Virus record (IMG/VR): IMGVR_UViG_3300037512_000782
Span: 188,732-252,731 of that record
Strand: one strand, 5' to 3'
DNA length: 64,000 bases
Origin: a virus
Lineage: Duplodnaviria > Heunggongvirae > Uroviricota > Caudoviricetes
Shown piece after piece: positions 27,876-63,634 of this stretch (position 1 is the first letter of the stretch; every line of letters starts with the position of its first letter). The position numbers were made by a program, and so were the translations under genes. The notes beneath the pieces were generated by a model, which was given only the letters and a program-made list of their open reading frames with translations, did no database searches and was not told the origin of the DNA.

Positions 27876-28098
27876 TTCTACTTAAACTGTGTAGAATCCA
27901 TCTATGTATGGCTTCGAGGACGTTGCCCATCAGTGGAGTCATGCCATGCATCATCCTCGTCTTGACGGCGATCCATCGTTTCTTCATGAGGCTATAAAAA
28001 TGGTGGCATGCGCCTATGGCAAACGCTATGTATATGGCCATAAAAATTTTTTCACGCATATTTCACAAATTATATCAAAAACCTCTTGACGCTGATGA

Positions 28099-28117
28099 GT
28101 GTTATTACTATATTTCG
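28099..28117 (+). promoter_or_regulatory. host-like promoter box GTTATTACTATATTTCGTG upstream of cca
   Basis: TATATTTC ends ~5 nt before ATG 28122. Confidence 0.5.
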
Positions 28118-28121
28118 TGGC

Positions 28122-36534: not shown

Positions 36535-37398
36535 ATGAAAGAACAAATTCCCGACGAACTTCTCACTCAATTCAAGGACAAGGCTAACTTGCCGAAAACT
36601 GACAACGTAATTATTACTCCGAAAAAGGCTACCGCATGGCTCAATATCACGAAGGCAAGTGGCTTCAAGAACCGCGCAATCCTTCCGCATCTGCTTGAAA
36701 AACTTTGCTCTGACTTGAAGGCTGGCAAGTGGATTCACAATGGCGAATCAATCAAGCTGGACAAGGAAGGTGTCGTTATTGACGGTCAGCATCGATTGTT
36801 GGCATGTATCAAGACTGGCATTCCGTTTATTGCGTCAGTGGCAAAGAACGTTGACCGTGACTCTTTCCCCACAATCGACTGCGGATGTTCTCGTAATTCA
36901 GCCCAAGTTCTCCGTATGGAAGGCGTGAAGTATCCGAAGACCGTCGCCGCCGTCATCAATACCATCGACCAGATCCGTACAAAGACTATATTGTCGAGAT
37001 CCAACGTTATGACGAACACCGACTCGCTTGAATTCCAGAGAGCTCACGCTGAACTTCTCGACAAGGTCATCATGACTGTCTATCCGCTTGCCAACAAGAA
37101 CAGACACCTGACTCCGCGCATGGCTGGTGCTGCATTGTACGTCCTTGTGACCGACTATGGCTATTCTTGGGACAAGGCGACCGACTTCATCTTGGGTTGC
37201 CTCTCGTCTGAGACGCATCCGAATGACATCGTCAACAAGTTCCGCAACGAACTTTACCAGAGAGCCCACACGAAAACGTCTGAAGGCATCAAGTTCTGCA
37301 ACCTTGTGCGCGTATGGAACGCTATCCAGAATGGCAGACGCTGCTGCCCGGCCTTCCGTACCGAATTCGACGAAATTCCGGAATTCGTACACGCCTAA
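36535..37398 (+). CDS. ParB/Srx-fold DGQHR-motif protein (DndB/ParB-like nuclease domain)
   Basis: VVIDGQHRLLACIKTGIPF carries the DGQHR motif. Promoter box TTGCTATATTTTTC 36487-36500 and SD-like AAAGGAAAT lie upstream. Bidirectional terminator 37422-37452. Confidence 0.55.
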   Translation: MKEQIPDELLTQFKDKANLPKTDNVIITPKKATAWLNITKASGFKNRAILPHLLEKLCSDLKAGKWIHNGESIKLDKEGVVIDGQHRLLACIKTGIPFIASVAKNVDRDSFPTIDCGCSRNSAQVLRMEGVKYPKTVAAVINTIDQIRTKTILSRSNVMTNTDSLEFQRAHAELLDKVIMTVYPLANKNRHLTPRMAGAALYVLVTDYGYSWDKATDFILGCLSSETHPNDIVNKFRNELYQRAHTKTSEGIKFCNLVRVWNAIQNGRRCCPAFRTEFDEIPEFVHA

Positions 37399-38900: not shown

Positions 38901-39361
38901 TTGATCGTCCTCGGCAATCTCATGAATATCTTCTCTATGCGGTCGACCTCGGCTATCACGTCCTTCGGTATGTCCGACTCGTCGTGGTGTAGGAAAAGGT
39001 GTACGGTGTTGATGTTCACCAAGACGACCTCGTACGAAATTATCTTGTCGCGGTCTACGCGAGTCCGAAGGTGCATCTCGTTCGATACCAGCTGGATAAG
39101 GCTGCTGCCAGGCATGTCGCCCTTGTAGCGGAACTCGCGTACCCGGTGACGCGCTATCTGGGCGATGCTATGCACCATCATGTTGTTCCGCATGTGGCTG
39201 TATGTCACGGTGAACGCCAGCGCCGCCCTTACGGTGCTGTATCCGTTGCCGTACGACTCGATAAACCAGCGGAACAGCATGCGGTCGTGCGAGTCCTTGA
39301 GGAACCGTCGTAGCCCAGCCGCCAGAAACCCGATGTATATTGTCCACAGCGCTATTCTCAT
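38897..39361 (-). CDS. N-terminally membrane-anchored island paralog P2
   Basis: Start set to MRIALWTIYIGFLAAGLRRF by analogy with the 4-nt overlaps of the other paralogs. The track ORF extends to 39457. Confidence 0.5.
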   Translation of the reverse strand: MRIALWTIYIGFLAAGLRRFLKDSHDRMLFRWFIESYGNGYSTVRAALAFTVTYSHMRNNMMVHSIAQIARHRVREFRYKGDMPGSSLIQLVSNEMHLRTRVDRDKIISYEVVLVNINTVHLFLHHDESDIPKDVIAEVDRIEKIFMRLPRTIK

Positions 39362-39828
39362 AGGTTCCTCGGTATGTTCATGAAGGATTCGTATATGGGA
39401 TGGTACTGTTCCCATGTGACGTCGTCCATGAAAGACGTCTTGCCCGACAGCATGCACCGAGACGGTGTGTACTGATAGAGTTCATACGGTAGGTCGAATC
39501 TTGGGTAGTACTTGGCGAGGTACTTGTCCATCGCGCCTCGTATCCTTGGTATCGCTTCCAAATAGCCGTGCGCACCTCTGCAGCGGAAGGTCTTGACAAT
39601 ACACGTAGGTATGGACACCCTCAGTCTGACCGCTTCGCCGTCGACGGTCATCCCCAAGTCCTTGGTCTTCACGTACACCAGCACAACCCTGTAGGCGTCA
39701 AGGCCGAACATCTGCAATGCCAGCGTCTGCTGGACACGGAAGCTGCGATAGCTCTTGAGCGTCTCCCATGCGTTCCTTGCAGCGCCGACGGCAAAGAAAC
39801 CGTATATTGTCCACAATACCTTGTTCAT
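39358..39828 (-). CDS. N-terminally membrane-anchored island paralog P3
   Basis: MNKVLWTIYGFFAVGAARNAWETLK anchor. C-terminus ends ...FMNIPRNL, homologous to P4. Confidence 0.55.
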   Translation of the reverse strand: MNKVLWTIYGFFAVGAARNAWETLKSYRSFRVQQTLALQMFGLDAYRVVLVYVKTKDLGMTVDGEAVRLRVSIPTCIVKTFRCRGAHGYLEAIPRIRGAMDKYLAKYYPRFDLPYELYQYTPSRCMLSGKTSFMDDVTWEQYHPIYESFMNIPRNL

Positions 39829-40283
39829 AGTTCCCTCGGCATGGCCTCGAACGCCTTGTTGATGCAGCGTACGTCGTAGCTGTCAAGGTGCTGTATGAGC
39901 TTCCACTCCCAGCCTTCCGTGTCCGGGCTGGACGTGTAGTCGCTCTCCAAGGTGAATTCGAGGTCGAGGCTGCCGTAGTGCCGACTGATGTACCTCTTCA
40001 TCCGTGCCTTCAGTATGATCGTCACGTCGAAGAACCCTTCGGCCCTCTTGCAGACGAACGTCCTCGTGATTCCGCTGGCGACCGAGACGTACATCGGCTG
40101 CTTGCCGCCGTCCGGAATGTCGATCCACAGAACCTTCCTGTACGATAGCGAGACATCGTACTTCCCCGGCGGAAGGTACGTGTCCCTCAGCCGCATGCCT
40201 ACGCCCATCTTCACCAGCTTCGAGAACCGCCGTGCGGCTCCGACGAGGAATCCTAGATACACAATGTAAAGAAACTTTTTCAT
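39825..40283 (-). CDS. N-terminally membrane-anchored island paralog P4
   Basis: MKKFLYIVYLGFLVGAARRF anchor. TFVCKRAEGFF...FEAMPREL is homologous to P3. Confidence 0.55.
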   Translation of the reverse strand: MKKFLYIVYLGFLVGAARRFSKLVKMGVGMRLRDTYLPPGKYDVSLSYRKVLWIDIPDGGKQPMYVSVASGITRTFVCKRAEGFFDVTIILKARMKRYISRHYGSLDLEFTLESDYTSSPDTEGWEWKLIQHLDSYDVRCINKAFEAMPREL

Positions 40284-40786
40284 AATAGCTCGTCCTCACG
40301 CATCTCCCCGCAGTTGACCAGCCGACGGTAGAACTCCCTTCGGTACTCGTTCATCACCCAGAGAAGCCTAGACATCCTGACGCCGTGCTTCTTGCAGAAC
40401 GTGTCGAACTGGTACTCCTCCTTCACCATGCGGTATCCGTCGTCGCTTGGGCAGTCCTCGGTACACCTGTAGGGGACGTAGTCGTCGATCGTGATGAAGA
40501 ATCCGTCGAGGTCGCCACGGTACTTCTCGCCGAGACGGCACCTCACGTCGTCGAACACCGAGTCGCGAACCTTGAACGGTATGTACATCGACGAGTACGT
40601 GAAGTACATCTCGCCCAGCTTCCTTATCACGAAGTAGCAGACGTACACGTCGCTTCCCCTGAACTTCTTCGGGTTCAGCCAGCCCTTGTATCGGTAGTTC
40701 TGCACGAAACGCGCCTTCCGCAACACCGACTTCCAGATGCCGACCACGGCAAGCAGTATGCCTATCCACGGAACCATCTTCCTCAT
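40280..40786 (-). CDS. N-terminally membrane-anchored island paralog P5
   Basis: MRKMVPWIGILLAVVGIWKSV anchor. C-terminal EEYQFDTFCKKHGVRMSRLLWVMNEYRREFYRRLV is shared with P6 and P7. Confidence 0.55.
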   Translation of the reverse strand: MRKMVPWIGILLAVVGIWKSVLRKARFVQNYRYKGWLNPKKFRGSDVYVCYFVIRKLGEMYFTYSSMYIPFKVRDSVFDDVRCRLGEKYRGDLDGFFITIDDYVPYRCTEDCPSDDGYRMVKEEYQFDTFCKKHGVRMSRLLWVMNEYRREFYRRLVNCGEMREDELL

Positions 40787-41334
40787 AGCAGCATGTCCTC
40801 GCTCATCTTTCCGTCGAGAACCAGCCGTCTGTACAGCTCCCTACGGTAGTCCACCATCGCCATCTCCACTCTCCTCATCGGTACTCCGTGCCTACTGCAG
40901 AACGTAGAGAAGCGGTACTCCTCCTTGATAGTCCCCGTGCCGTTTCCGTTGTCGTCCATGTACTGCGGCGGAACGTTGGGCTCTATCGTCATGAGGAACC
41001 CGTCCATACGACCGAACGAACCGCCTCCGCCAACGTCGTAGAGGCCGAGTGTAAGGTCGAACTGGTATCGGTAGTCGTCCACTACGTCCTTCGGCAAGTA
41101 GATCGGAGAACAGTTGTAGTAGAACTCGGACACCAGCTTCCGCTTGCCGTGGACGCTCTTCAGCTTCACGTCGTACAGACAGAAGCACATCTGCCTCCAC
41201 GACCAAGGACGGAACTTCCTACCGTCCAGAAGACCCAAGTGACGCCTCTCAAGGAACGCCACGCGACGCCGCATCGACTTCCATACGCCGATCCCCAGTA
41301 TGCCGAACGCTATCATGGGCATGCCGATCCTCAC
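40783..41334 (-). CDS. N-terminally membrane-anchored island paralog P6
   Basis: MRIGMPMIAFGILGIGVWKSM anchor. EEYRFSTFCSRHGVPMRRVEMAMVDYRRELYRRLV is homologous to P5. Confidence 0.55.
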   Translation of the reverse strand: MRIGMPMIAFGILGIGVWKSMRRRVAFLERRHLGLLDGRKFRPWSWRQMCFCLYDVKLKSVHGKRKLVSEFYYNCSPIYLPKDVVDDYRYQFDLTLGLYDVGGGGSFGRMDGFLMTIEPNVPPQYMDDNGNGTGTIKEEYRFSTFCSRHGVPMRRVEMAMVDYRRELYRRLVLDGKMSEDMLL

Positions 41335-41870
41335 CGTACGTCCTCCTCCTTGATGTACCCGTCCTCGATCAGCTTCACGTACAGCTGGCCACGCAAGTCG
41401 TCCATCGCTCCCTTCAGCTTGCTGTAAGGAACCCTATACACCTCGCAGTACGCCTTGAACGTGTACTCCGGCTTCACTTTCCATACGGCGTCGCCCTTGA
41501 ACGTCCTTCCAGACAGATACCGTGCAAACCCAGGGATGTTCACGCACAGAAGCAGCTCCCAGCCGCCAAGCATCTCCTTGTACGGAGCAGTTATCTCCAC
41601 GGCGAGACTCGCCGCGTATACCGTAGGGACGGCAGTAGGCAACAGCACCTCGCACATGTCGTAGTACCGCAGCACCGAGCCGTCCTTCACCCGGCACAGC
41701 ATGTAGTGGTAGCTTCGGCATGGGTAGTTGAACAGCATGTGGCTGTACGACGTCCTAGCACGGCCTCCCAGTCTCCTAACGAACTTGAAACGGCCTACCA
41801 GCGCACGGTATCCGCCGTACGCTGCAAGACATACCGCAAGAAGCGGATATATGACCGTGCCTATCCTCAT
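41331..41870 (-). CDS. N-terminally membrane-anchored island paralog P7 (first gene of island operon)
   Basis: MRIGTVIYPLLAVCLAAYGGYRAL anchor. KPEYTFKAYCEVYRVPYSKLKGAMDDLRGQLY relates it to P5 and P6. On the minus strand, a TTTGCTATATTTCGG box ends ~8 nt upstream of the ATG. Confidence 0.55.
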   Translation of the reverse strand: MRIGTVIYPLLAVCLAAYGGYRALVGRFKFVRRLGGRARTSYSHMLFNYPCRSYHYMLCRVKDGSVLRYYDMCEVLLPTAVPTVYAASLAVEITAPYKEMLGGWELLLCVNIPGFARYLSGRTFKGDAVWKVKPEYTFKAYCEVYRVPYSKLKGAMDDLRGQLYVKLIEDGYIKEEDVR

Positions 41871-41973: not shown

Positions 41974-43125
41974 TCATTTACTCGGTGATTTACGACAACG
42001 GCCAGTTTGTTTTGGAATTAACTTAATTATGTCTTGGTATATACCAGATCGATACGCTTGCCCGTAAGCGACCCTATGATTTGTCTTGAATTCTGTGCGA
42101 GTTGTACATGACCTCGCGATTTCACATAATTCGTCATACGTATATGTGTGGTATATGTTGACTCGTAAGGGAGGAACCTCGGCAGTGAGTCGGCCAATGA
42201 GTCCTCGATGAACGATTTCGTTATATATGCTTGGGTGTTTTTTGCGGCACTTAGACATACTCCCTGATTGTTGGACAGTCAAAAGTAGTTCGTCGTCGGC
42301 TAGTTGGCTTGGCGTGGTTCGCGGCTTAAATAAGTCGCTGATCATATTTCGCCGAACGGCTTCGCTGTATTCTGAATAATATTGTGATTTGAATTTACGC
42401 TTGCTTGAGCATAACGATGCTTTAGTGCGGATGTCCTCATCGGTAATATTACATAATGCCGCTGATGATGTATGTGTGGATTGATTCCAATGGGAGATTT
42501 CAGATTCGAATTTACTGTATATCCCTCGTCTAAGCGATTCTTTGTAATCGGCGGCATGATAATTCATGAATTCGCTTCTGTTTCGGCAGCTGAATGCGAT
42601 ATCGTATAGCTGTTGATCACTTAATGATTGTATATATCGGTTGGCTCGGCGATGCACTGGGGTATAATCAGGTAGTCGGCGGAGCAGATGTGTCCAACCG
42701 TGGTATTGAAGAGAACTGTATTCTCTTGGAAATTGGGTTCTAAATTCCTTGCATGTCTGACATCGGTCTATAAGGACTGCAATTTTATCTTCGGTCAGGC
42801 CGCTATATCGGCCAAGTGCCCCGCCATTATTCTTGTTAAGCACGGTGTAACCGTTTCGCTTATGCCGCGCAATTTCGTCGCGTTCTAGCGCAGACGCCTC
42901 ATTCCCGGTTAGACGGTTATGCAGCAGTGACACCGTAAACGTGCATCCAGTGGTGTCTAAGTAGTCCTTGACTAGACTGGCCTTGCGATAGTGGTATTCT
43001 TGATAAATTCGCCGTTCATAGCAACTAGTTAACCCTATGTATACCGCATTAGTTTCGATAAAATGCCAGCGGTATACGACCCAAATGGGCAGCTGCCGTA
43101 TAATTGCACTATAGTCAGATTGCAT
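41974..43125 (-). CDS. free-standing GIY-YIG homing endonuclease with C-terminal ~33-aa repeats
   Basis: VYRWHFIETNAVYIGLTSCYERRIYQEYHY...E...N..GG is GIY-YIG-like. C-terminal repeats of form xCxxRxEFKxxHxxAYxxAYRxGIYxxI. AT-rich. Confidence 0.7.
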   Translation of the reverse strand: MQSDYSAIIRQLPIWVVYRWHFIETNAVYIGLTSCYERRIYQEYHYRKASLVKDYLDTTGCTFTVSLLHNRLTGNEASALERDEIARHKRNGYTVLNKNNGGALGRYSGLTEDKIAVLIDRCQTCKEFRTQFPREYSSLQYHGWTHLLRRLPDYTPVHRRANRYIQSLSDQQLYDIAFSCRNRSEFMNYHAADYKESLRRGIYSKFESEISHWNQSTHTSSAALCNITDEDIRTKASLCSSKRKFKSQYYSEYSEAVRRNMISDLFKPRTTPSQLADDELLLTVQQSGSMSKCRKKHPSIYNEIVHRGLIGRLTAEVPPLRVNIYHTYTYDELCEIARSCTTRTEFKTNHRVAYGQAYRSGIYQDIIKLIPKQTGRCRKSPSK

Positions 43126-43593
43126 GATATGTACACTATGGATATTTTTCTTAATATTACTAATCTATGATTAGAATGTCAAATGAGATGAGCCCCCATA
43201 CCCCCAGCCCACCTAAATTTTTGAAGAATATAGTAGGGGTATAATATGTAAATTTATTTTTATTTTTATGTACCCTGAAAAATAATCATGAAATGGACAG
43301 ACCATTTGCTGCTGGTGATACGAGCGGTGCTTGTCGTGCGAAGTCACTCATGGAACCCCAGGTTAACAAGAACAAGATTGCACTGCTCAGATGTGCCTTA
43401 CGGCGATTTAGCCTAGACTAACTTAGCCCTGGCTAACCTTGTGATCCTCGGCTAACATCGGACAGACTGCTCGCCTACAGATCCCCTTACGGCGTTTTGG
43501 ACTGGCACGAGTTCGGCGGGACTGCTTCCCAAGTGTATGCAAGCTTTGTCAAGCAACGACGCTTGATACGATACACCACTAACCAAAAGGGTT

Positions 43594-44388
43594 ATGACTA
43601 TGAAAAAGCTCAATCTCACCGTTCTCTCCAAGCTCTCCAACACGTTCGCTAGCCTCCGCTACTTCGGCGAGGTCAAGATGAACAAAAAGGCACGTGTCGC
43701 CAACGAAGTTCTCACCAAAGCTATCGCTGAACACGGTGGCAAGGTCGCCGAAGTCGGCTCGCCGTGTCCGTTCAAGACGGTCAAGAAAGCCAACACCTAC
43801 ACGGTGTCTATCGGTGCCAAGCTTCAGTATAAGCGCAAGGTCGAAGCCATGACTAAGCGCAACGGCGTTGAAACCGAATACCACCCAGAAGTGAGGAACT
43901 TGGGAATGTTCCCCATCTTCGGCGAACTCGTTTGGCTGAAGAATGACCTCAGTGAGGTCTACATTCGTGCCTATCAAGTTTCAAAGCCCAAGGCTGCTAC
44001 CTACTACGGTGACGGCGTTGTGGTTGCCAAGGAAAACATTGGGCAGTGGCTTCCGATTAAGGACTACAACACGGTCAGCGGTCTTGAAAATAATGTTTCT
44101 GTGGTCGCCACCGCAAGCGGTGAGGTAATTTATTGCCAAGACGAAAGCGGAAATATTATTAAGGATGAAAACGGCGAGCCGATGACTATGGCTCTTCCGG
44201 AAGTCCGCAGCTTGAAGCTCTCCAACATCGAACTCTATCGCAAGGGTGAAAAAATTGAATTTTTCACTGACGAAGAGTGGGATGACGCCGAACTCATCAA
44301 GATTCGCGACGAGTACCACGCAAGAATGGCGAAAGCGGCTGAAGCCTACGAAAAGGCGATGGCTGAAGCCCAAGCCAAGCAGAACTAA
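43594..44388 (+). CDS. hypothetical protein (alternative start 43600)
   Basis: First gene of the hyperplastic region; 264 aa, Ala/Lys/Glu-rich C-terminus. Confidence 0.55.
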   Translation: MTMKKLNLTVLSKLSNTFASLRYFGEVKMNKKARVANEVLTKAIAEHGGKVAEVGSPCPFKTVKKANTYTVSIGAKLQYKRKVEAMTKRNGVETEYHPEVRNLGMFPIFGELVWLKNDLSEVYIRAYQVSKPKAATYYGDGVVVAKENIGQWLPIKDYNTVSGLENNVSVVATASGEVIYCQDESGNIIKDENGEPMTMALPEVRSLKLSNIELYRKGEKIEFFTDEEWDDAELIKIRDEYHARMAKAAEAYEKAMAEAQAKQN

Positions 44389-44527
44389 CAACAACCGCCC
44401 CCAATATGGGGGCACTTTTATTTTTCATTTGTGTGGAAAATAAAAGTGTTTCCGTAGTGGTGTACGGTCGGACGGTAGCCCTTACTCCCAGGGTTGCCGT
44501 CTTTTTTATTTTGTACTCACACCCATC

Positions 44528-44581
44528 GGACTGGCACGGTTCCGACGGGGCTGCCGACGGCGGATATTCTGACTATGTAAA
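44528..44581 (+). promoter_or_regulatory. phage-specific promoter/stem-loop cassette (PeSL-like), copy b
   Basis: GACTGGCAC, then N8 CGGGGCTGCCGACG, then N14 TATGTAAAC, then CCAAAGGAGA and ATG 44599. Confidence 0.6.
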
Positions 44582-44598
44582 CCAAAGGAGATTTCAAA

Positions 44599-44796
44599 AT
44601 GTCCAAAGAAACCAAACAATTTGATATTGCAATTATGGACTACTCGGATGCTAGCATCCGCATTTTTACTCGCACCCTTCCGAAGGATATTCAAAGCGAG
44701 GAATTAGAGGAAATTCTGACCGCTGAAGGAATTTACAAGCAGTCCGAATGTTATTTCATGTACGCTGAAAAAATCAACATTATCAACGAGGTATAA
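44599..44796 (+). CDS. hypothetical small protein
   Basis: Preceded by cassette b and SD AAAGGAGA. Confidence 0.5.
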   Translation: MSKETKQFDIAIMDYSDASIRIFTRTLPKDIQSEELEEILTAEGIYKQSECYFMYAEKINIINEV

Positions 44797-44797
44797 A

Positions 44798-45124
44798 ATG
44801 CGTAAAATGTTGTTTACAATTCTTACTTTGTGTGCGCTCGCTTGCGCCACCGAACTACCTATTTGTGAAGAGTTCGAGGGCGAAAAGAATGTTTCGTGCG
44901 TAGCTGGCGACCGCCAAGCGGTCATTATCACCTATCACGCCGATGGGTCGCGGTCTTACGAGTATTTCAAGGACAACCGCAAAATTTATTTGGAATATGG
45001 CGAAAACTATGTTTATGCGTCCGATGGCAAGCGTAAAATAGATGTTAGCCCTATACCGAACGATGACCATATAGCGTATATAGACGAGCTATTTTATGGT
45101 CTAATAGATACTTTGGACTTCTAA
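44798..45124 (+). CDS. putative secreted protein or lipoprotein
   Basis: MRKMLFTILTLCALACATELP signal peptide with a lipobox-like LxxC. Coupled to the upstream gene (TAAAATG). Confidence 0.5.
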   Translation: MRKMLFTILTLCALACATELPICEEFEGEKNVSCVAGDRQAVIITYHADGSRSYEYFKDNRKIYLEYGENYVYASDGKRKIDVSPIPNDDHIAYIDELFYGLIDTLDF

Positions 45125-45126
45125 CC

Positions 45127-45150
45127 AAAGGGGCGCAAGCCCCTTTATTT
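45127..45150 (+). terminator. intrinsic terminator (GGGGCGCAAGCCCC family)
   Basis: AGGGGCGCAAGCCCCT hairpin with GCAA tetraloop, followed by TTATTTGG. Near-identical copies at 49515-49545, 50269-50292, 55662-55690 and 59163-59190, with variants at 46259-46292 and 46975-47000. Confidence 0.7.
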
Positions 45151-45267
45151 GGTCGCTATACGGTGTCAGACTGGCACGGCGATGGCGGGACTGCTACGCA
45201 GTCCTATTTTTATTTTGTAAGCCGATGGGGCTTACGAAAACGCCATTCTCAAAAGGAGATACGAATT

Positions 45268-46257
45268 ATGGCTTACAAAAAGACCGGAAAAACGGCTTCC
45301 CAAGTTGGGGAAGAAATCAAGTCCACCATTACATCCAAGTTCCTTGAATGCCTCGACAAGGGCTGTATCCCTTGGAGAGAACAGTGGAACCGCAGCGAAA
45401 GCGGCTTTCTGAAGAGTGACGGCAAGTCCTACTCGTTCTTGAACACTCTGTTGCTCGTCATTGACGGCTGCACGGAAGGCGAGTTCGTGACCTTGAACGG
45501 TATCGCTGAACGCTTGGGCATTGAACCCAAGGAAGCTTGGAACCACATCAAAAAGGGCGACAACGGCAAGGCTGTCCATGGTCACCATGTCTACTTCTAC
45601 ACCATGGTTCCTATCTACCTCAAGGAAGACGGCAAGGTAGTATACGAAAGGGACGCTCGTGGTCAGTTTGTCTTGGACTCCAAGGGCAAGAAGATACCGA
45701 AGATTAGCGGTCATTATCCTATGCTCAAGAGTTCGGTTGTTTGGCAAGTCGGCACTGAAGCTTTTTGTCCGACGAAGTTCGAGAAAAAGAAAAAAGTAGT
45801 CCACAACAATCCGATTGCGGTCGCTGAACAAATTATTGTTGACTATCAAGCTCGCGAGGGTGTCAAGATTGAATTCCGCAACGCCACGCCAGGATATTCG
45901 GATAAGCTTGACAAAATCTATATTCCGTCCATCAATGACTATCCGAACGCAAATATTTATTATTCGGATTTGTTCCATGAAATTGCTCACTCTAGCGGTC
46001 ATCCGAAAAGATTAAATCGTGACCTCGACAACCGCATGAAACGTGGTTCTTACTCTTTTGAAGAGTTGGTCGCTGAAATCTGTTCGTGTGCGATAATGCA
46101 CGACAACGGATTTGACACTCCGCAGTGCGACGAATTAAGTCAATCCTATGTAAAGGATTGGGCGAAAACTCTCAGAAGTGACCCCACAATGATTGAAAAA
46201 GCTTGTCGCGTGGCGGTCAAGGCTGCAAACTTTATCTACAACGGAGAAAAGAAGTAA
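45268..46257 (+). CDS. ArdC-like antirestriction protein (DUF1738 ssDNA-binding N-domain + zincin HExxH metallopeptidase domain)
   Basis: N-terminal ITSKFLECLDKGCIPWREQWN matches the DUF1738 core IxxxIxxLEKGxxPWxxPW. C-terminal FHEIAHSSGH has HExxH. ATG 45268 follows AAAAGGAGA; the track ORF starts at 45163. Confidence 0.7.
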   Translation: MAYKKTGKTASQVGEEIKSTITSKFLECLDKGCIPWREQWNRSESGFLKSDGKSYSFLNTLLLVIDGCTEGEFVTLNGIAERLGIEPKEAWNHIKKGDNGKAVHGHHVYFYTMVPIYLKEDGKVVYERDARGQFVLDSKGKKIPKISGHYPMLKSSVVWQVGTEAFCPTKFEKKKKVVHNNPIAVAEQIIVDYQAREGVKIEFRNATPGYSDKLDKIYIPSINDYPNANIYYSDLFHEIAHSSGHPKRLNRDLDNRMKRGSYSFEELVAEICSCAIMHDNGFDTPQCDELSQSYVKDWAKTLRSDPTMIEKACRVAVKAANFIYNGEKK

Positions 46258-46307
46258 GAAAAGGGGCTTCGCCCCTTTTCTTTTTATTTTGTGCTGATCG
46301 ATCCAGT

Positions 46308-46361
46308 GACTGGCACGGCGACGGCGGGACTGCCTCGACTGGATATTTTTTCTATGTAAAC
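46308..46361 (+). promoter_or_regulatory. PeSL-like cassette, copy d (upstream of radC-like gene)
   Basis: GACTGGCAC GGCGACGG CGGGACTGCCTCG ACTGGATATTTTTTC TATGTAAAC, then AAAGGAG and ATG 46376. Core to TATGTAAAC spacing is exactly 15 nt. Confidence 0.65.
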
Positions 46362-46375
46362 GAAAGGAGTTTAAT

Positions 46376-46972
46376 ATGAAAGACGCATTTGTTCTTATGA
46401 GCACTATTCTTGGCGATGAAAATGTTGCATACGATGTATGCAGATATTTAGAGGGACGTCAGACACCGCCCACGGTAGAAGAGCTTACTCATATTCACGG
46501 TGTCGGCGAGGCGACCGCCAATAAGGTTCTCGCTTGTATGGAATTGTCGGCGACCTATATGGTCGGCACGAATACAAAGGTGTTCAGCGACCCAGACGAT
46601 ATCGCTCGCCGCTTCTGTAACCTCAAGTATGAGAATCAAGAACACTTGTATGTTCTCACGCTCGACTCGGCTAACCACGAGGTCGGCTGTCACGAGGTCA
46701 CTTGTGGGCTGGTTAACCAGACACCGTTCCATCCTCGTGAGGTGTTGCGTTACGCCCTTATGGATAACGCTGTAAGCGTTGTTCTGTGCCACAACCATCC
46801 CAGCGGCTCGACTGACCCATCGCAGCAAGATTTGGGCATTACGAGGGTGCTGGCGGCGGCTTGCAAGATAATGCAAATTGCTTTCCTCGACCACGTGATA
46901 GTATCACGCAGCGGATTTTATTCAATTTGCAGAACTAATCCGGAAATTTTTGAAGCAACACTCAAGACCTAA
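46376..46972 (+). CDS. radC: RadC-like JAB-domain protein (UPF0758/DUF2466)
   Basis: Diagnostic HNHPSGSTDPSQQDLGITRVL (HNHPSG...PS..D JAMM-like motif). N-terminal helix-hairpin-helix THIHGVGEATANKVLA. Confidence 0.85.
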   Translation: MKDAFVLMSTILGDENVAYDVCRYLEGRQTPPTVEELTHIHGVGEATANKVLACMELSATYMVGTNTKVFSDPDDIARRFCNLKYENQEHLYVLTLDSANHEVGCHEVTCGLVNQTPFHPREVLRYALMDNAVSVVLCHNHPSGSTDPSQQDLGITRVLAAACKIMQIAFLDHVIVSRSGFYSICRTNPEIFEATLKT

Positions 46973-47015
46973 TCCAAAGGGCGAACGCCCTTTTTTAATT
47001 CATTATACGTCAGAC

Positions 47016-47069
47016 GACTGGCACGACGGCGACGGGACTGCCTCGACTGGATATTTATTATATGTAAAC
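47016..47069 (+). promoter_or_regulatory. PeSL-like cassette, copy e
   Basis: GACTGGCAC ... CGGGACTGCCTCG, N15 with TATT, TATGTAAAC, AAAGGAG. Confidence 0.65.
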
Positions 47070-47082
47070 GAAAGGAGCTTAT

Positions 47083-47238
47083 ATGGACATCAAGTTCATC
47101 ATTCTTGCTATTCTCTCGCTGTTCATCACGGTCAAGGTCTTCGCGTCCGCCAAGGCTCTCCCAGCCGTCGTCGGATTCTGTGGCGTGTTCGCCATGCTCT
47201 TGATTGCGTGGAATACTATTGCAGACAAAATTCACTGA
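47083..47238 (+). CDS. small two-helix membrane protein (51 aa)
   Basis: Not in the track. Cassette e and SD AAAGGAGC lie 6 nt upstream. The product MDIKFIILAILSLFITVKVFASAKALPAVVGFCGVFAMLLIAWNTIADKIH is hydrophobic. Confidence 0.4.
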   Translation: MDIKFIILAILSLFITVKVFASAKALPAVVGFCGVFAMLLIAWNTIADKIH

Positions 47239-47270
47239 ACACAAACAACCTAACCAAGGAGTAAAAACAA

Positions 47271-47552
47271 ATGAAACTCATTGCATTTTTTGCCGCGCTC
47301 GTGCTCGCTGCTTTCATCTTCTTTGGCTGTGACGCCAAGACAAAAGAAGCTGGTGACAAGATGGCCGAGGCCACAAAAGAATTAGTTAAGACGGCGCTCA
47401 CCGAAGCCGCCGACACCGCCAAGGCCAAGGCCGCCGAGGCTGCCGATGTCGCCAAGGATAAAGCAGCAGAAGCCGCCGAAAAGGCCAAGGTAAAAGCCAA
47501 GGCCAAGGCTGCCGAAGCTGCCGAAGCCGCCGCAGAAGCTCTTAGAAAATAA
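47271..47552 (+). CDS. Ala/Lys-rich secreted protein or lipoprotein
   Basis: Signal peptide ending FFGC, then KAKAAEAA repeats. Terminator 47568-47600. Confidence 0.55.
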   Translation: MKLIAFFAALVLAAFIFFGCDAKTKEAGDKMAEATKELVKTALTEAADTAKAKAAEAADVAKDKAAEAAEKAKVKAKAKAAEAAEAAAEALRK

Positions 47553-47833
47553 AATAACACGGCATGGGCTACGCCGAGGAGTAGCCCACCTTTTTATTTG
47601 GGACTCTATAACATGGCTAAATCAAGCAAAATTATCACGGTGCGCACCACTAAGCGCGTGGGCGGTCGATAATGAAAGTCGATATCGTATACATCAAGTT
47701 GACCCCAGTCGAGGGCGCGTGGTGGCGCAAGATCGCTAGCAAGAAGAAGTAGACTGGCAAGAGCTTGGCGGGACTGCTCCCCAAGCTTATTACATCTATG
47801 TAAGCAGTTGAACCCCTAACCAAGGAGATTGAT

Positions 47834-48352
47834 ATGGGTTTTGCAAATCCTAAAGGTCGCTACCATGTAGGGCCTAAGAAGAAGACACGCTCTCGCAAGT
47901 TCCACAAGCCTATCTGTGACGAAGTCAAGCAGACAAGTGGTCTCAATCCGATGGACGAAGCCACCGTCAAGGTGCTTAGTCAGATGGACGATACTGCCAT
48001 GGGCGAGTTCGTCATGGCGACCGCACATCCGAATCCGAAGGATGTGGTCATCATCAAGGAGAATGGCCGTGTCAAGCCTCTCGTGCTTGATGACAACGAT
48101 GAGCGTCAGACCAACCGTGGGCGTGTCTATGTCGGTCTCGGTGGTGTCGGTGTCGGTCTCGGTGTCGGTCTCGGCTCTCGTCCGACCGAACGCCACGATG
48201 ACGATGACCGCGAACCCGTGGTGGTCATTCCGACACGCACCGCAAGGGTCGCTACTCCGACTCCGAAGGTCACGGCTCCGCAGACCGAAGGCGAGATTGT
48301 GGGCTACATTATCAAGAAGCCGAATGGCGAATTGGTTTTGAAGCTCAAATAA
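47834..48352 (+). CDS. hypothetical protein
   Basis: Cassette f plus SD AAGGAGA. Contains VGLGGVGVGLGVGLG low-complexity. Terminator 48366-48400. Confidence 0.55.
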   Translation: MGFANPKGRYHVGPKKKTRSRKFHKPICDEVKQTSGLNPMDEATVKVLSQMDDTAMGEFVMATAHPNPKDVVIIKENGRVKPLVLDDNDERQTNRGRVYVGLGGVGVGLGVGLGSRPTERHDDDDREPVVVIPTRTARVATPTPKVTAPQTEGEIVGYIIKKPNGELVLKLK

Positions 48353-48432
48353 ACTTCGGTCGCAAATGGCTAGGGTTGCTCCCTAGCCATTTATTTTCTA
48401 TCTTTCACCCTCAATTAAAGGAGAAATAAAAA

Positions 48433-48804
48433 ATGAAAAAGACAATCCTAGCAATTCTTTTGTTTGCAGTGCTCGCCCTCGCTGAAAACTTTAATACCGA
48501 CAAGGGTCTCGTCACCGTATCTAAGAACAAGTACGGCACGGAATATGTTTTGCATCCCTCGGCTCCGCTCGCTGGTCTCGGTGATGTCAAGCGCATTGAA
48601 ATGAACGAGTGCAGCGACTTCAAAAACATTATTATTACCTACAATGACGGTACGGTACAGCAGTACAGCGCAGACGGCGACAAGACGCCCACGATGACTA
48701 TACAGCGCGACGACCGCTTTATATCGTGGGAAAATATAAGTGCGAACAAGTTTGCTAAAGCGTGGCGAACCTACAGCAAGATATTCCAGGGCTACACCGC
48801 ATAG
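48433..48804 (+). CDS. secreted hypothetical protein
   Basis: Signal peptide MKKTILAILLFAVLALA. SD AAAGGAGA. Confidence 0.55.
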   Translation: MKKTILAILLFAVLALAENFNTDKGLVTVSKNKYGTEYVLHPSAPLAGLGDVKRIEMNECSDFKNIIITYNDGTVQQYSADGDKTPTMTIQRDDRFISWENISANKFAKAWRTYSKIFQGYTA

Positions 48805-48931
48805 GGTAGCCCCCTTTTTTGTAGGGATCGATCCGGACGACTGGCACGACGGCGACGGGACTGCTCCGCTGGTGTATTATATTCATGTAAGCAAGAGAGC
48901 TTACGGCTACACCACTCACAAGGAGTTTTAT

Positions 48932-49513
48932 ATGTCAAGAAGACAATCGACTAGCGAAACCGAATCTCTGAACTATGTATGGACTGATTCCGTGGACTTG
49001 ACCAAGAGCAAGTCCTACGAGACCGAACGCAACGACGACGGCAACGAGGTGTTCATCTTCTGTGGCAAGGAGGTCTACGAGAAGCTGGAGTGCGGCAACT
49101 CCAGCGCCACCAAGGACATCGTGGCTGGGCTGCTGGGCTGGCTCGCTCAAGGCGACAGAGGCGACGCTGGTAGCGTCGAGGTCAACGGCTGGTACGAACC
49201 GCCTACCTACTGCTGGAGCGACCCCAGCTGCTCCGACCCAGGCGACGGCGACATCACGAGCGCCATCGTATCGCTGGCTACTGGACTGGAGGACAGCTTC
49301 AGAGAGGACATCGACCTCTACTTCAAGGACATCAGCGAACTGGACGCTGAAGCTCTCAAGACTATGGACATCGACGCCATAATCGAGAAGTGCCGAGAAG
49401 TCAAGGGCGAAAACAAGAACTGGAACGCCAGTGCCAAGAAAGTTTACAATAGGTTCCCCAAGCTTCTCGCGGAAGAACTTTATTCTGAACTTGATGGTAA
49501 GGACATTCTTTAA
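48932..49513 (+). CDS. hypothetical protein
   Basis: Start moved to ATG 48932, which follows cassette g and SD AAGGAG. Track ORF starts at 48740. Confidence 0.55.
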   Translation: MSRRQSTSETESLNYVWTDSVDLTKSKSYETERNDDGNEVFIFCGKEVYEKLECGNSSATKDIVAGLLGWLAQGDRGDAGSVEVNGWYEPPTYCWSDPSCSDPGDGDITSAIVSLATGLEDSFREDIDLYFKDISELDAEALKTMDIDAIIEKCREVKGENKNWNASAKKVYNRFPKLLAEELYSELDGKDIL

Positions 49514-49514
49514 T

Positions 49515-49545
49515 CAAGGGGCGCAAGCCCCTTTTTATTTTATTT
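49515..49545 (+). terminator. intrinsic terminator (GGGGCGCAAGCCCC family)
   Basis: AAGGGGCGCAAGCCCCTTTTTATTTT. Confidence 0.7.
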
Positions 49546-49637
49546 GTGATCGATCCGGACGACTGGCAGTCCAGCGACGGGGCTGCCTCTACTGGATATT
49601 TTATTTATGTAAACAAGTTCAACCAAGGAGTTATCCA

Positions 49638-49940
49638 ATGTACAAAATTCAAGTTATGCCGTTCCGTGGCGCGATGTACGCCATCAATGTACTCAACACT
49701 GACACCAACAAGCAGTGCAAATTTATGGTAGGCGTCGATACTACCGTGGGCTACGCCAATGGTCAGAGCAAGACGCTCGACGCTGGCGGACATACGCTGA
49801 ACATTGATAGCCGCTCTCCTACTCCAGGCTTCGCACCCAAGAACGAGATGACCAAGGACGAAGTCAAGGCGGAGTTCGACGCCATGTGTACGGCTATCGC
49901 CGAAGATTTTACCAAGAGCTTAACCACAACCAAGGAGTAA
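49638..49940 (+). CDS. hypothetical protein
   Basis: ATG 49638 after cassette h and SD AAGGAG. Confidence 0.5.
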   Translation: MYKIQVMPFRGAMYAINVLNTDTNKQCKFMVGVDTTVGYANGQSKTLDAGGHTLNIDSRSPTPGFAPKNEMTKDEVKAEFDAMCTAIAEDFTKSLTTTKE

Positions 49941-49943
49941 ACT

Positions 49944-50120
49944 ATGCTGAAAGTATGGCGTGAAGTGAAACAAGTCTGTGCCCTCGCTGGGTTCAAGTAT
50001 CTAGGCCGTGACGACTTTGCATTTGCAAAGAAGCTGCTGGCCGCTGGCAAGAAGCCGAGAGAGATAGCCAATAGGGTTCTCGACTCTATCTATGGCCTTG
50101 AAAAATGTTACGACTGCTAG
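49944..50120 (+). CDS. small protein (58 aa)
   Basis: Not in the track. SD AAGGAG overlaps the previous stop. Product is MLKVWREVKQVCALAGFKYLGRDDFAFAKKLLAAGKKPREIANRVLDSIYGLEKCYDC. Confidence 0.35.
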   Translation: MLKVWREVKQVCALAGFKYLGRDDFAFAKKLLAAGKKPREIANRVLDSIYGLEKCYDC

Positions 50121-50420
50121 GGGCTGCCATGATGACCAAGATAATTAAAGTCAAGGTGAACGGACGGATAGAAGATATTACCGTGACCGTGGGCATGAGA
50201 AAGGTGGAACCGCAACCGCAACGGTCTCGCTTCCGTCTGCCCAAGTTAGGAATGTTGTTTCACTGGTAAGGGGCGCAAGCCCCTTTTTTTCGTATAGGCG
50301 CTTTACAATTCGCACGGATCGATCGATAATAACTGTAGAGACTGGCACCGCGACGGCGGGACTGCTCTCGACATGTATTATATTTATGTAAACGATACAC
50401 CACTTAACAAGGAGTTCAAC

Positions 50421-50840
50421 ATGGAAGTATCTGTTGTTTCTCGCACCGATTCTGAACACCGCATCCTTGAGAGTGTCCACTTGGACAAGCACGAGGCTGA
50501 AGAAGCTCGCCTCGCCATCGTCAAGCGCTACAAGAATGCGCCTCACCTCTGCACCGACACGGAGACGGACAGCTTCACCGTCGATGTGTGGGTGGCTACC
50601 AAGGTCAAGGCGACCAAGGACGGCCAAGCTCCGGAGACGACGGTGCTCGCCGTCGGCAGCCAGCGCAAGTGCGAAGGCGCAGCAGCCCTCGAAGTGGCGT
50701 CGCTGGAGCGCTTCGTCAACGGCGAGGTCGAGGGCGACGCTGACCACGGCTGGACGGCGACGGACGACGACACTGGAGCCACCTACACGGTGCAGCTGCA
50801 CCACGGCTCCGCTAACCCTTTAATCACCATTGGAGGCTAA
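50421..50840 (+). CDS. hypothetical protein
   Basis: ATG 50421 after cassette i and SD AAGGAG. Confidence 0.5.
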   Translation: MEVSVVSRTDSEHRILESVHLDKHEAEEARLAIVKRYKNAPHLCTDTETDSFTVDVWVATKVKATKDGQAPETTVLAVGSQRKCEGAAALEVASLERFVNGEVEGDADHGWTATDDDTGATYTVQLHHGSANPLITIGG

Positions 50841-50841
50841 T

Positions 50842-50991
50842 ATGGCTAACTTCGAACAGTATCTGAAAGAACAGCATAACATGACCATCAGCGAATATCA
50901 AGCGCTGGACAACGACACGAGACTCGGTTTTCTCCGTGGTCATCAGATGTTCAATATGCTTGAGCTTCTTGATAAGGTCAGAAGCCGTTAA
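50842..50991 (+). CDS. small protein (49 aa)
   Basis: Not in the track. SD GGAGG lies 8 nt upstream. Terminator 51001-51034 follows. Confidence 0.35.
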   Translation: MANFEQYLKEQHNMTISEYQALDNDTRLGFLRGHQMFNMLELLDKVRSR

Positions 50992-51000
50992 TAAAATTTT

Positions 51001-51034
51001 GGTGAGTATCAACATGATACTCACCATTTTATTA
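51001..51034 (+). terminator. intrinsic terminator
   Basis: GGTGAGTATC-aacat-GATACTCACC followed by ATTTTATT. Confidence 0.65.
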
Positions 51035-51101
51035 ACACTTTATCAACAAGATCTCAACAAAATATTAAACATTATTCACCATCTATCAACAAGGAGGCCG
51101 T

Positions 51102-51374
51102 ATGGCCAAGCTCTATTATCTCGAAAACTCGGTTCCTACATACAACGACCAAGCTAAATATTTTGTTAGTGGTAGCGATGCTAGTGGCGAACACTACAAC
51201 GGTGCGAGCGATTTGCTGAACGCTCGATTCTTCTTTGACGAGGAAGAAGCGAAGCGCTGTATTCACACGGCAAATAATTGGTGGCAGAAGTACGACTTCA
51301 AAGTCAAGTCCATTGAAATCACCGAGCTTCAAAGCTTGATGGCGAAGAAGAAAGATTCATTCATACTTATCTAA
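51102..51374 (+). CDS. hypothetical protein
   Basis: SD AAGGAGG; 90 aa. Confidence 0.5.
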   Translation: MAKLYYLENSVPTYNDQAKYFVSGSDASGEHYNGASDLLNARFFFDEEEAKRCIHTANNWWQKYDFKVKSIEITELQSLMAKKKDSFILI

Positions 51375-51379
51375 CTGGA

Positions 51380-51426
51380 TGGACGACGACGGGGCTGCCT
51401 CGCCGTCGTATTTTTGTTGTACGAAC
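51380..51426 (+). promoter_or_regulatory. PeSL-like cassette, copy j
   Basis: GACGACGAC-GGGGCTGCCT-CGCCGTCGT: covarying stem around the conserved loop. N15 then TGTACGAACC, then AAGGAG. Confidence 0.6.
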
Positions 51427-51443
51427 CTAACAAGGAGTTGACT

Positions 51444-51734
51444 ATGGTTGATATGAATACACCGCTTGCACCGGAAATTGAAGCTGCTCTCGCCAAACTG
51501 GACGACGGCGAGGTCATTGAGTGTGACATCAAGTATAAGGATAACGGCGAACTGCGCACTGGCGTATCGATAGCGTTGCACGGCGACGACTGCCAAGACG
51601 GTAGCGACGACGATATCTTCTTCTACTGTGACAGCTTGAACGACTTCAGAGCGCTGCTCAAAGAGGACAACGGCGAGGACTTTGTGGTCGTCGGCTTTGA
51701 CAACGGCAAGGAAGGAGGAAGCTGGCATAGCTAG
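51444..51734 (+). CDS. hypothetical acidic protein
   Basis: Cassette j plus SD AAGGAG. Confidence 0.5.
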   Translation: MVDMNTPLAPEIEAALAKLDDGEVIECDIKYKDNGELRTGVSIALHGDDCQDGSDDDIFFYCDSLNDFRALLKEDNGEDFVVVGFDNGKEGGSWHS

Positions 51735-51744
51735 CAGACTGACA

Positions 51745-51791
51745 TCCGGACGGCGAGGCTGCCTCGTCGTCCTATTCCTTCTATACAACCT
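51745..51791 (+). promoter_or_regulatory. PeSL-like cassette, copy k
   Basis: GGACGGCGA-GGCTGCCT-CGTCGTCC, then TATTCCTTC TATACAACC, then AAGGAG. Confidence 0.6.
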
Positions 51792-51806
51792 CAACAAGGA
51801 GCTGCT

Positions 51807-57511: not shown

Positions 57512-58288
57512 ATGGCTCAAGTTTTCGACGACATCAACAACATTGTGAGACCTACGAAGGGTATCAAGGCGTTCAAGTTCAATCCCAACACCGTCAAGTA
57601 CAAGTTCGAGACCAAGGGTAACTCGAAGATCGGCAAGATCGCCGTCTGGTCTACCTTGATGGGCGACTACACCTACAAGGGCATGCGTGGCAAGCTCAAG
57701 GACATCAAGGGCACGTGCAAGAACTGCAAGTCGTGCAAGCCGTCTTGCTACTGCCGTCACGGCTACTGCATCCATCCGTCCGAGGTGTTCAACCACGCCA
57801 AGAACACATGGGGACTGCGCAACGACCGCGACTACGTGCTCGCTTGCCTCACCCAGCAGCTCTCCCACGGCAACATCCACACGGTACGCATCAACGCTTC
57901 CGGCGAAGTCGAGGACGACAACCAGATGATTCTGTGGGTCACGCTCGCCATGTGCTTCTCGAAAGTGAAGTTCTACCTTTACACAAAGAACTACGAGCTC
58001 GCCGAACAGTTCTTGCTCAAGGGTCTCGTGCCGGAAAATTTTGTGATTCTCTACTCGGTCTGGGGCGAGAACGGCGTGAAAGAATTTGAACGTGTAAAGC
58101 ACTTACCGAACGTAAAAGCTTTTGTTTTCGACGACGGCGATATGAAAATCGAACCTAACAAGTATTGCCCAGCATACGTCGAAAAGTTCAAGAACTCGAA
58201 CAAGTACAAGCGCAAAAACATTCATTGCGACCAGTGCAAAATGTGTTTCGCTGGCAAAACAAAAGTTATCGCTTGTCACGACCATTAA
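57512..58288 (+). CDS. cysteine-rich hypothetical protein
   Basis: Cluster CKNCKSCKPSCYCRHGYC and a C-terminal CDQCKMC. Degenerate cassette t. Confidence 0.5.
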   Translation: MAQVFDDINNIVRPTKGIKAFKFNPNTVKYKFETKGNSKIGKIAVWSTLMGDYTYKGMRGKLKDIKGTCKNCKSCKPSCYCRHGYCIHPSEVFNHAKNTWGLRNDRDYVLACLTQQLSHGNIHTVRINASGEVEDDNQMILWVTLAMCFSKVKFYLYTKNYELAEQFLLKGLVPENFVILYSVWGENGVKEFERVKHLPNVKAFVFDDGDMKIEPNKYCPAYVEKFKNSNKYKRKNIHCDQCKMCFAGKTKVIACHDH

Positions 58289-63537: not shown

Positions 63538-63589
63538 ACTGGATCCGGCCCGGCGGGGCTGCCCTGCCGGGTTATTCTTTCTACACAAC
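63537..63589 (+). promoter_or_regulatory. PeSL-like cassette, copy dd
   Basis: GACTGGATC CGGCCCGGCG-GGGCTGCCC-TGCCGGG, then TTATTCTTTC TACACAAC. Confidence 0.55.
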
Positions 63590-63590
63590 A

Positions 63591-63618
63591 AACAATCAAC
63601 AATCAACAATCAACAATC
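63591..63618 (+). repeat. (AACAATC)x4 heptanucleotide tandem repeat in 5' leader
   Basis: Four perfect AACAATC units lie between the cassette -10-like element and the AAAAGGA RBS of the last gene. Confidence 0.8.
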
Positions 63619-63634
63619 AAAAGGACACAATCCA

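Follow-up and report, generated by a model that had tools for sequence, protein, structure and literature searches.

Introduction

ArdC of the IncW plasmid R388 counters the type I restriction system HsdRMS of the recipient and prefers single-stranded DNA (ssDNA) over double-stranded DNA (dsDNA) (PMC7213743). ArdC-like proteins have already been annotated in phiCbK-like and other phages, and RadC is likewise already known in several phages. Conjugative plasmids and integrative and conjugative elements (ICEs) carry short RadC proteins, which share the JAB catalytic domain with other RadCs and stand in an establishment-type gene setting, for example the DUF3085-JAB-HTH-DGQHR string of IncL/M plasmids. 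In the hyperplastic regions of T4-type phages, short repeated intergenic cassettes with a stem-loop, named PeSLs, flank small non-essential genes, and insertions or replacements between related phages break inside these cassettes (PMC2839356, PMC4122927). Here we analyze a phage locus with an ArdC-like and a RadC-like gene. The stretch studied, called the window, comprises 64,000 nucleotides (nt) of the IMG/VR record IMGVR_UViG_3300037512_000782 (positions 188,732-252,731; Caudoviricetes). It contains an ArdC-like gene (45268-46257, plus strand) that is followed directly by a RadC-like gene (46376-46972, plus strand).

A first-pass annotation of the window had taken the two genes for an anti-restriction pair in the style of plasmid leading regions. 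Our comparison shows instead that they are independent accessory modules. ArdC is vertically conserved in these phages, and RadC is a floating module that was inserted directly after it by recombination between repeated regulatory cassettes.

Results

RadC was exchanged as a module next to a conserved ArdC gene

ArdC is vertically conserved across the phage clade, in a fixed slot close to the start of a block of small genes. In the relatives L001-L009, L011 and L013, the gene adjoins a divergent minus-strand block and comes after the same 244-264-amino acid (aa) gene, a small gene of 65-86 aa (missing in L004) and an 86-112-aa gene. The identity between the ArdC of the window and those of these relatives ranges from 39% to 90%.

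The location of RadC was compared in the same loci. A six-frame profile search for RadC within 6-8 kb downstream of ArdC found none in L001, L004, L005, L006 and L007. RadC lies 2.5 kb downstream of ArdC (five or six genes away) in L009 and L011, and 6 kb downstream (ten genes away) in L013. When the window was aligned by blastn to its closest relative, L007 (91% nt identity), two colinear blocks were obtained, 43382-46372 and 47026-51803. The segment between them (46373-47025) contains RadC and stands where L007 (4068-4425) encodes an unrelated open reading frame (ORF) of 115 aa, which had no Pfam match. In the comparison with L001, RadC together with one cassette appears as a clean insertion (window positions 46360-47010 are absent from L001). 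Between L009 and the window, the RadC modules are 88% identical and the genes flanking them about 66%. According to the synteny blocks and junction sequences, the mobile module covers 46360-47025 on the plus strand. The exchange junctions fall in cassettes, and the private terminator that comes with RadC is the same in the window phage and in L009.

These comparisons show that ArdC and RadC are independent monocistronic modules, each consisting of a cassette, a Shine-Dalgarno (SD) sequence, an ORF and a terminator, and that the two genes are adjacent because the RadC module was shuffled in between repeated cassettes. An inherited or functional pair had been proposed for this locus; the adjacency is absent from every close relative examined, and RadC is an inserted or replacing module.

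Each gene stands behind its own cassette

The first-pass annotation had placed each gene behind a PeSL-like cassette of its own. This was borne out, with copies at 45169-45258 and 46308-46369 and with recombination breakpoints inside cassettes. Ahead of the first copy, the upstream 108-aa gene is closed by a GC-rich hairpin, AAAGGGGCGCAAGCCCCTTT (45127-45146, plus strand), which reads as terminator-like and has identical counterparts flagged as such at 49516 and 50268. The cassette 5' of ArdC (45169-45258, plus strand) comprises a GACTGG box, the hairpin GGGACTGC-TAC-GCAGTCC (45187-45205, -14.3 kcal/mol), a TATT/T-rich box and an AAGGAG SD. It matches the cassette core with one mismatch and was recovered by nhmmer with an E value of 2e-39. 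ArdC is followed by a hairpin of 12 pairs with a T-run that resembles an intrinsic terminator (46256-46292, hairpin 46256-46282, plus strand) and is conserved in L007 and L001. Next comes the cassette 5' of RadC (46308-46369, plus strand), with an exact copy of the 26-nt core, a TATTTTTTCTATGTAA box and an AAGGAG SD. In both the ArdC-like and the RadC-like ORF, this SD lies 6-10 nt 5' of the ATG. The terminator-like hairpin that travels with RadC, AAAGGGCGAACGCCCTTT, is again followed by a T-run (46976-47000, hairpin 46976-46993, plus strand), and a near-identical sequence is found 3' of RadC in L009. A further cassette copy (47016-47077, plus strand) precedes the gene of a 51-aa membrane protein (47083-47238).

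These cassettes belong to a large set. The 26-nt core GACTGGCACGGCGACGGCGGGACTGC was found five times at up to three mismatches, against 0 expected. A profile search with nhmmer raised the count to about 30 copies, exclusively on the plus strand and all at 43.5-63.6 kb. Their elements come in a constant order: GACTGG, a GC-rich hairpin that carries or flanks a GGGRCTGCC box, TATT-N5-7-TAYRYAA and AAGGAG. The motif GGG[AG][CT]TGC occurs 32 times on the plus strand and 0 times on the minus strand. TATT-N5-7-TAYRYAA was found 21 times between 43.4 and 64 kb, and neither strand has it in the preceding 43.4 kb. The hairpin arms covary, with compensatory changes between GGGGCTGC/GCAGCCCC and GGGACTGC/GCAGTCC, and the mean folding z score of the hairpins is -1.9. 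Terminator-like sites are enriched (28 versus 7.9 +/- 2.9 expected). An Rfam scan of the whole window at the gathering threshold gave no match; the cassettes correspond to no known RNA family.

Two cassette subtypes were seen. Copies of the first come after canonical terminators and combine a GATCGATCC box with TATGTAAAC; those of the second have long perfect hairpins together with TATACAAC. After the last cassette, the leader at 63589-63620 (plus strand) contains three tandem copies of CAACAAT ahead of the SD. We also considered whether the TGGCAC...CTGC core could be read as a sigma-54 element and rejected this, as its two parts are about 13 nt apart; in the sigma-54 consensus the spacing is 4-5 nt.

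The cassettes delimit a hyperplastic block (43497-63600, plus strand) that holds both the ArdC-like and the RadC-like gene, with at least 37 small same-strand genes, about 30 of which stand behind a cassette copy; 37 small ORFs preceded by an SD, all on the same strand, were counted from 43.6 kb to the window end. The likeness to T4-type PeSLs lies in the arrangement, in short repeated intergenic stem-loops between small genes, and in the position of the breakpoints. Module exchange at PeSL cassettes has been described in T4-type phages (PMC2839356), and the RadC junctions behave alike. In contrast to those PeSLs, the cassettes of this phage are unrelated in sequence, lack a sigma-70 consensus and have a conserved GGGRCTGCC box in the hairpin. 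By analogy, they are putative promoter and terminator elements of the PeSL kind, and the block is probably expressed early and transcribed from them.

The first gene encodes an ArdC-family protein

By every sequence and structure criterion, the predicted 329-aa product of 45268-46257 is a genuine full-length member of the ArdC family. It contains the motifs LDKGCIPWREQW and HEIAH, and its domain layout comprises an ArdC-N domain of the ssDNA-binding type (about residues 16-110), a beta-hairpin insert (about 106-161) and a zincin MPTase domain (about 195-325). Pfam assigned PF18818 (MPTase-PolyVal, residues 195-313, E 2.3e-26) above the gathering score and PF08401 (ArdcN, E 1.1e-6) with 29.3 bits against a gathering cut-off of 22.6. 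In PHROGs, the product matched phrog_7245, "anti-restriction protein" (2.8e-38). The sole match of a phmmer search against the PDB was R388 ArdC (6i89/6sna, E 6e-19). In the alignment with 6i89, HEIAH corresponds to HEATH and FEELVAE to FEELIAE; the N-domain correspondence of WREQW to WRKPW is weak but colinear. Counted along the phmmer alignment, H237, E238, H241, E266 and Y294 correspond to H201, E202, H205, E229 and Y255 of R388 ArdC, in which E229 is the metal-ligand glutamate that was mutated and Y255 the tyrosine named by the authors (PMC7213743). In an alignment of 38 homologues reaching down to 25% identity, H237, H241, E266 and Y294 are invariant and E238 is nearly so; P35, W36, Y55 and N59 of the N-domain are also invariant.

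The AlphaFold2 model of the protein (pLDDT 85.7, pTM 0.80) had 6i89 as the top PDB match in Foldseek, with an E value of 1.9e-14 over 314 columns that cover both domains and a target-normalized TM score of 0.72; the next, unrelated match had an E value of 0.04. The first-pass call of an ArdC-like protein with an ArdC-N domain and an HExxH zincin thus agrees with the Pfam assignments, the motifs and the fold match.

The protein shares with R388/pSa ArdC (PDB 6I89/6SNA) the two-domain architecture, the metal and catalytic residues and the predicted fold. It differs in being only about 22-28% identical and in having a beta-hairpin insert of about 55 residues. Its setting is also different, since it is a gene of a dsDNA jumbo phage, outside any plasmid leading region and with no ssDNA entry step; the gene and its relatives were found on jumbo-phage-like contigs rather than in a conjugative element's leading or establishment region. 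The phiCbK-like Caulobacter and Brevundimonas jumbo phages (PHROG 7245) have annotated full-length proteins with ArdC-N and MPTase domains, and tblastn matches to them span 98% of the query. Their identity is about 27% and their hosts belong to another phylum; these proteins and the present one are known from sequence alone. The ArdC family is present in 50 of 50,697 phage records (about 0.1%). An antisense ORF (45232-46002, minus strand) was rejected as a gene, being located wholly inside the homology-supported gene.

The second gene encodes an N-terminally shortened RadC

The predicted 198-aa product of 46376-46972 is an N-terminally shortened RadC that has retained the HhH. It contains the HNHPSGSTDPSQQD motif, an HhH at residues 28-53 (PF00633, E 4.4e-6) and a RadC/JAB domain at residues 71-185 (PF04002, E 4.9e-36), both above gathering scores. 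All three Pfam families proposed for the two neighbors at the outset, PF08401, PF18818 and PF04002, were therefore assigned above their gathering scores. In PHROGs the product matched phrog_10276 (7.5e-35), and its JAB domain matched PDB 2qlc (E 1.2e-20). The JAMM signature E122...H139-x-H141-x7-S149-xx-D152 is intact; in 30 homologues H139, H141, S149 and D152 are invariant and E122 is nearly invariant. A RadC/JAB protein with an HhH, as initially annotated, was thus confirmed. The NCBIfam models scored below their cut-offs (NF000642, 145.3 versus 180; TIGR00608, 129.3 versus 133.85). The match spans profile positions 52-207 of 212, and the first approximately 50 canonical residues are absent. 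An antisense ORF (46448-46894, minus strand), also wholly inside a homology-supported gene, was rejected.

Among named bacterial proteins, the phage RadC is closest to chromosomal RadCs of Fibrobacter sp., which are 44-50% identical to it. A C-terminal "CR..PE.FE" tail is common to the phage RadCs, the Fibrobacter RadCs and one RadC of bacterial length (P0194); the other aligned bacterial RadCs are without it. Along with the identity and the tail, the chromosomal RadCs of Fibrobacter (UPF0758/YsxA type; JAB structure 2QLC) share the HhH-JAB architecture and the E...HxHx7SxxD signature. The phage protein differs from them by the missing N-terminal residues, by scores below both NCBIfam cut-offs, and by being phage-borne and mobile. 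A genome scan with the single RadC, in which Fibrobacter was not included, gave best full-length matches of at most 38% identity and was uninformative for host ranking; it used exact query peptide words and missed the 44-50% identical Fibrobacter RadCs. Because the nearest relatives are Fibrobacter chromosomal RadCs with the common C-terminal tail, the sequence comparison points to capture of the phage RadC from a host, and this host is probably Fibrobacter. The RadC family is present in 43 of 50,697 phage records (about 0.1%).

Plasmid homologues differ from both phage proteins

ArdC-like proteins were found in 2329 plasmid records and RadC matches in 2264. That both families are common on plasmids would favor the acquisition of ArdC and RadC as a unit from a conjugative plasmid, but the comparison of the proteins and loci speaks against it. 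All plasmid ArdC-like proteins are at most 32% identical to the phage ArdC. Only 49 of the 2264 RadC records span at least 80% of the phage RadC query, so almost every plasmid RadC is JAB-only. The plasmid and ICE proteins have about 150 aa and no HhH, in contrast to the HhH-JAB phage protein of the chromosomal Fibrobacter type. In four sampled plasmid RadC loci, no ArdC-like ORF was found within 6 kb (0/4). Instead, the neighbors were DUF3085/HTH/DGQHR, KleA, ArdA or hypothetical genes. The pOXA-48-type IncL/M plasmid L015 (NZ_OW967006.1, 5424-8791) has a short RadC/JAB gene in a string of DUF3085, JAB, HTH and DGQHR-domain genes. The recurrent partners of RadC in pOXA-48-type plasmids are DUF3085 and DGQHR proteins rather than ArdC. 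An origin of the phage genes in a plasmid leading region, as suggested by the first-pass annotation, does not fit these data.

The phage and the rest of the window

We read the source element as a jumbo dsDNA phage of rumen-type metagenomes. Close homologues of both proteins are carried on phage-like metagenome contigs of 244-479 kb, some with names that suggest a rumen or gut dataset; genes of the tRNA-maturation type and lysis-related genes accompany them. A blastn search with 45000-47300 against the 50,697 phage records gave no match and thus no close sequenced relative at the DNA level. The window contains phage-type and auxiliary genes, including that of a 740-aa protein with a PHROG match, and a weak amidase/endolysin match. 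The genes for Thg1 (tRNA-His guanylyltransferase; 16364-17236, plus strand) and for an enzyme of the CCA-adding/poly(A) polymerase family (28095-29378, plus strand) are present; despite these, ARAGORN found no tRNA gene across all 64 kb. Further auxiliary genes encode an SPFH/flotillin-like protein (31190-32827, plus strand), a NAMPT-like protein (PHROG 448; 24802-26151, minus strand) and a DHH phosphoesterase (2931-3938, plus strand).

Upstream of the cassette block, five genes (152-179 aa each; 39358-41870, minus strand) stand in tandem, with stop codons that abut or overlap the next start codons. The hydrophobic N-termini of their products resemble one another, and the products are probably paralogous membrane proteins. 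The relatives L001 and L004 have four to eight such small tandem genes in the same position. Divergent to the block, 41974-43125 (minus strand) encodes a 383-aa protein with "VYIGLT" near the N-terminus and several internal repeats of about 20 aa. It had no Pfam match at E <= 0.01, and its larger homologues in L005 and L009 have a weak GIY-YIG Pfam match. Two conserved neighbors 3' of the RadC slot, both low in complexity and without a Pfam match, encode a 93-aa lipoprotein-like product rich in Ala, Lys and Glu (47271-47552, plus strand) and a 172-aa product with a GLGGVGVGLGVGLG tract (47834-48352, plus strand).

The 43-64 kb region had been described as an anti-defense arsenal, which the annotation of its genes does not support. 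When 31 other genes of the block were searched against Pfam, 30 had no significant match and the sole match was GP88 (57512-58288). PADLOC returned zero matches for ArdC, RadC, the DGQHR protein or their neighbors. The DGQHR gene (36535-37398, plus strand) had been assigned to the same functional neighborhood as a ParB-like gene. The 287-aa product does contain the DGQHR pentapeptide, which is invariant in nine aligned sequences, but the gene is located 9 kb upstream of ArdC, outside the cassette block and in another transcription block that has no cassettes. Pfam, NCBIfam and PADLOC gave no match at E <= 0.01. An AlphaFold2 model (pLDDT 76, pTM 0.55) had the N-domain of pNOB8 ParB as the best PDB match, which was weak (E 0.011, TM 0.27). 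A search of the PDB with a sequence profile from the DGQHR alignment yielded only HSP82 matches (E about 0.05), which were judged spurious.

Discussion

The explanation that accounts best for these results is that ArdC and RadC are independent accessory modules, ArdC being vertically fixed and RadC a host-derived floating module, so that their adjacency would have no functional meaning. We give this reading as a whole a probability of roughly 0.7. Under it, ArdC would most likely bind the phage genome, on entry or during replication, where this is single-stranded or partly so, and blunt host restriction, the precedent being the action of R388 ArdC on type I systems. RadC would be a moron captured from a host and would most likely have nucleic acids or nucleotides as its substrates.

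Several observations weigh against this explanation or parts of it. We surveyed 80 ArdC-bearing and 80 RadC-bearing IMG/VR loci for co-localization within 10 kb on either side. RadC was present in 1 of the 80 ArdC-bearing viral loci, where it is directly adjacent (L085), and an ArdC-like ORF was present in 4 of the 80 RadC-bearing loci, in two of them almost adjacent (L104, L106). Since each family occurs in only about 0.1% of phage records, an approximate base rate, this co-localization would be above chance; it is also loose and far from obligate. Moreover, RadC is fused to ArdC-N in polyvalent proteins, according to Iyer et al. (PMC5512222), who predicted a nucleic-acid-processing role for RadC. 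Given these loci and fusions, there may be some functional affinity between ArdC and RadC, and the idea of pairing them was not baseless. As to the cassettes, sigma-70-type promoter matches are not enriched (11 versus 7.8 expected) and are missing from the conserved core of every cassette; the labels "early" and "promoter" come from the analogy with T4-type PeSLs (PMC2839356). The assignment of Fibrobacter as the host derives from the similarity of a single gene and from the sample type. Finally, a dsDNA phage does not enter the cell as ssDNA, and the mechanism of its ArdC may differ from the plasmid case. The protection of incoming ssDNA, which had been carried over from plasmids in the first-pass annotation, is not directly transferable to a dsDNA jumbo phage.

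It is possible, though on the whole doubtful, that RadC is a host-derived auxiliary gene of DNA metabolism that helps the phage to replicate or recombine and plays no part in counter-defense. The chromosomal Fibrobacter RadCs as nearest named relatives and the retention of the DNA-binding HhH together with a complete JAMM motif would fit such a role, and a full-text literature search on RadC, phage and anti-defense gave only Legionella natural transformation. On the other hand, the gene is located among variable morons and not among replication genes, and it is dispensable in most relatives.

For ArdC, the main alternative is a role as a DNA-dependent metallopeptidase, because its active site is invariant. 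It would then act as Spartan or IrrE does, mainly cleaving a host defense or regulatory protein at the phage DNA instead of passively coating this DNA. The conservation of H237, H241, E266 and Y294, and nearly of E238, down to 25% identity argues for selection on catalysis, and Spartan and IrrE are the closest folds of the C-terminal domain of R388 ArdC (PMC7213743). Against this, the protease-dead E229A mutant of R388 ArdC still works, rescuing conjugation, and a substrate of the protease was not found (PMC7213743); no target is identifiable from our window either. We consider a predominantly proteolytic ArdC unlikely.

Although ArdC and RadC stand side by side or almost so in the unrelated viral contigs L085, L104 and L106, and although RadC-ArdC-N fusions are reported, a co-functioning anti-restriction pair that came as one piece from the leading region of a conjugative plasmid and acts on incoming DNA is very improbable and is largely refuted by the synteny comparison, in which no close relative keeps the adjacency and RadC was exchanged separately. 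In L106 (7742-13908), an unrelated viral contig, the adjacent RadC and ArdC-like genes are followed by three small unannotated ORFs and then by two methyltransferase genes, the first of the C5 cytosine type; this stretch looks like an anti-restriction neighborhood.

Returning to independent modules, a broader picture can be sketched, which we offer tentatively and hold to be improbable in its entirety. ArdC would be a positionally fixed, probably first-wave gene of a rumen jumbo-phage clade, next to which RadC-like morons are swapped via hairpin cassettes. Anti-restriction by ArdC would then not be tied to conjugative entry of ssDNA, and the cassettes would represent a new class of promoter-recombination elements, perhaps read by a phage RNA polymerase.

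The locus illustrates that two "plasmid-style" genes side by side in a phage need not form a module, and the comparison corrects a tempting over-reading. It also provides a clear natural case of gene replacement mediated by cassettes, so far described mainly in T4-type phages, within a jumbo-phage clade that is uncultured. This shuffling is a more interesting aspect of the locus than the addition of two new members to known families. As a conserved component of these dsDNA phages, ArdC offers a second biological setting in which its invariant peptidase site can be probed.

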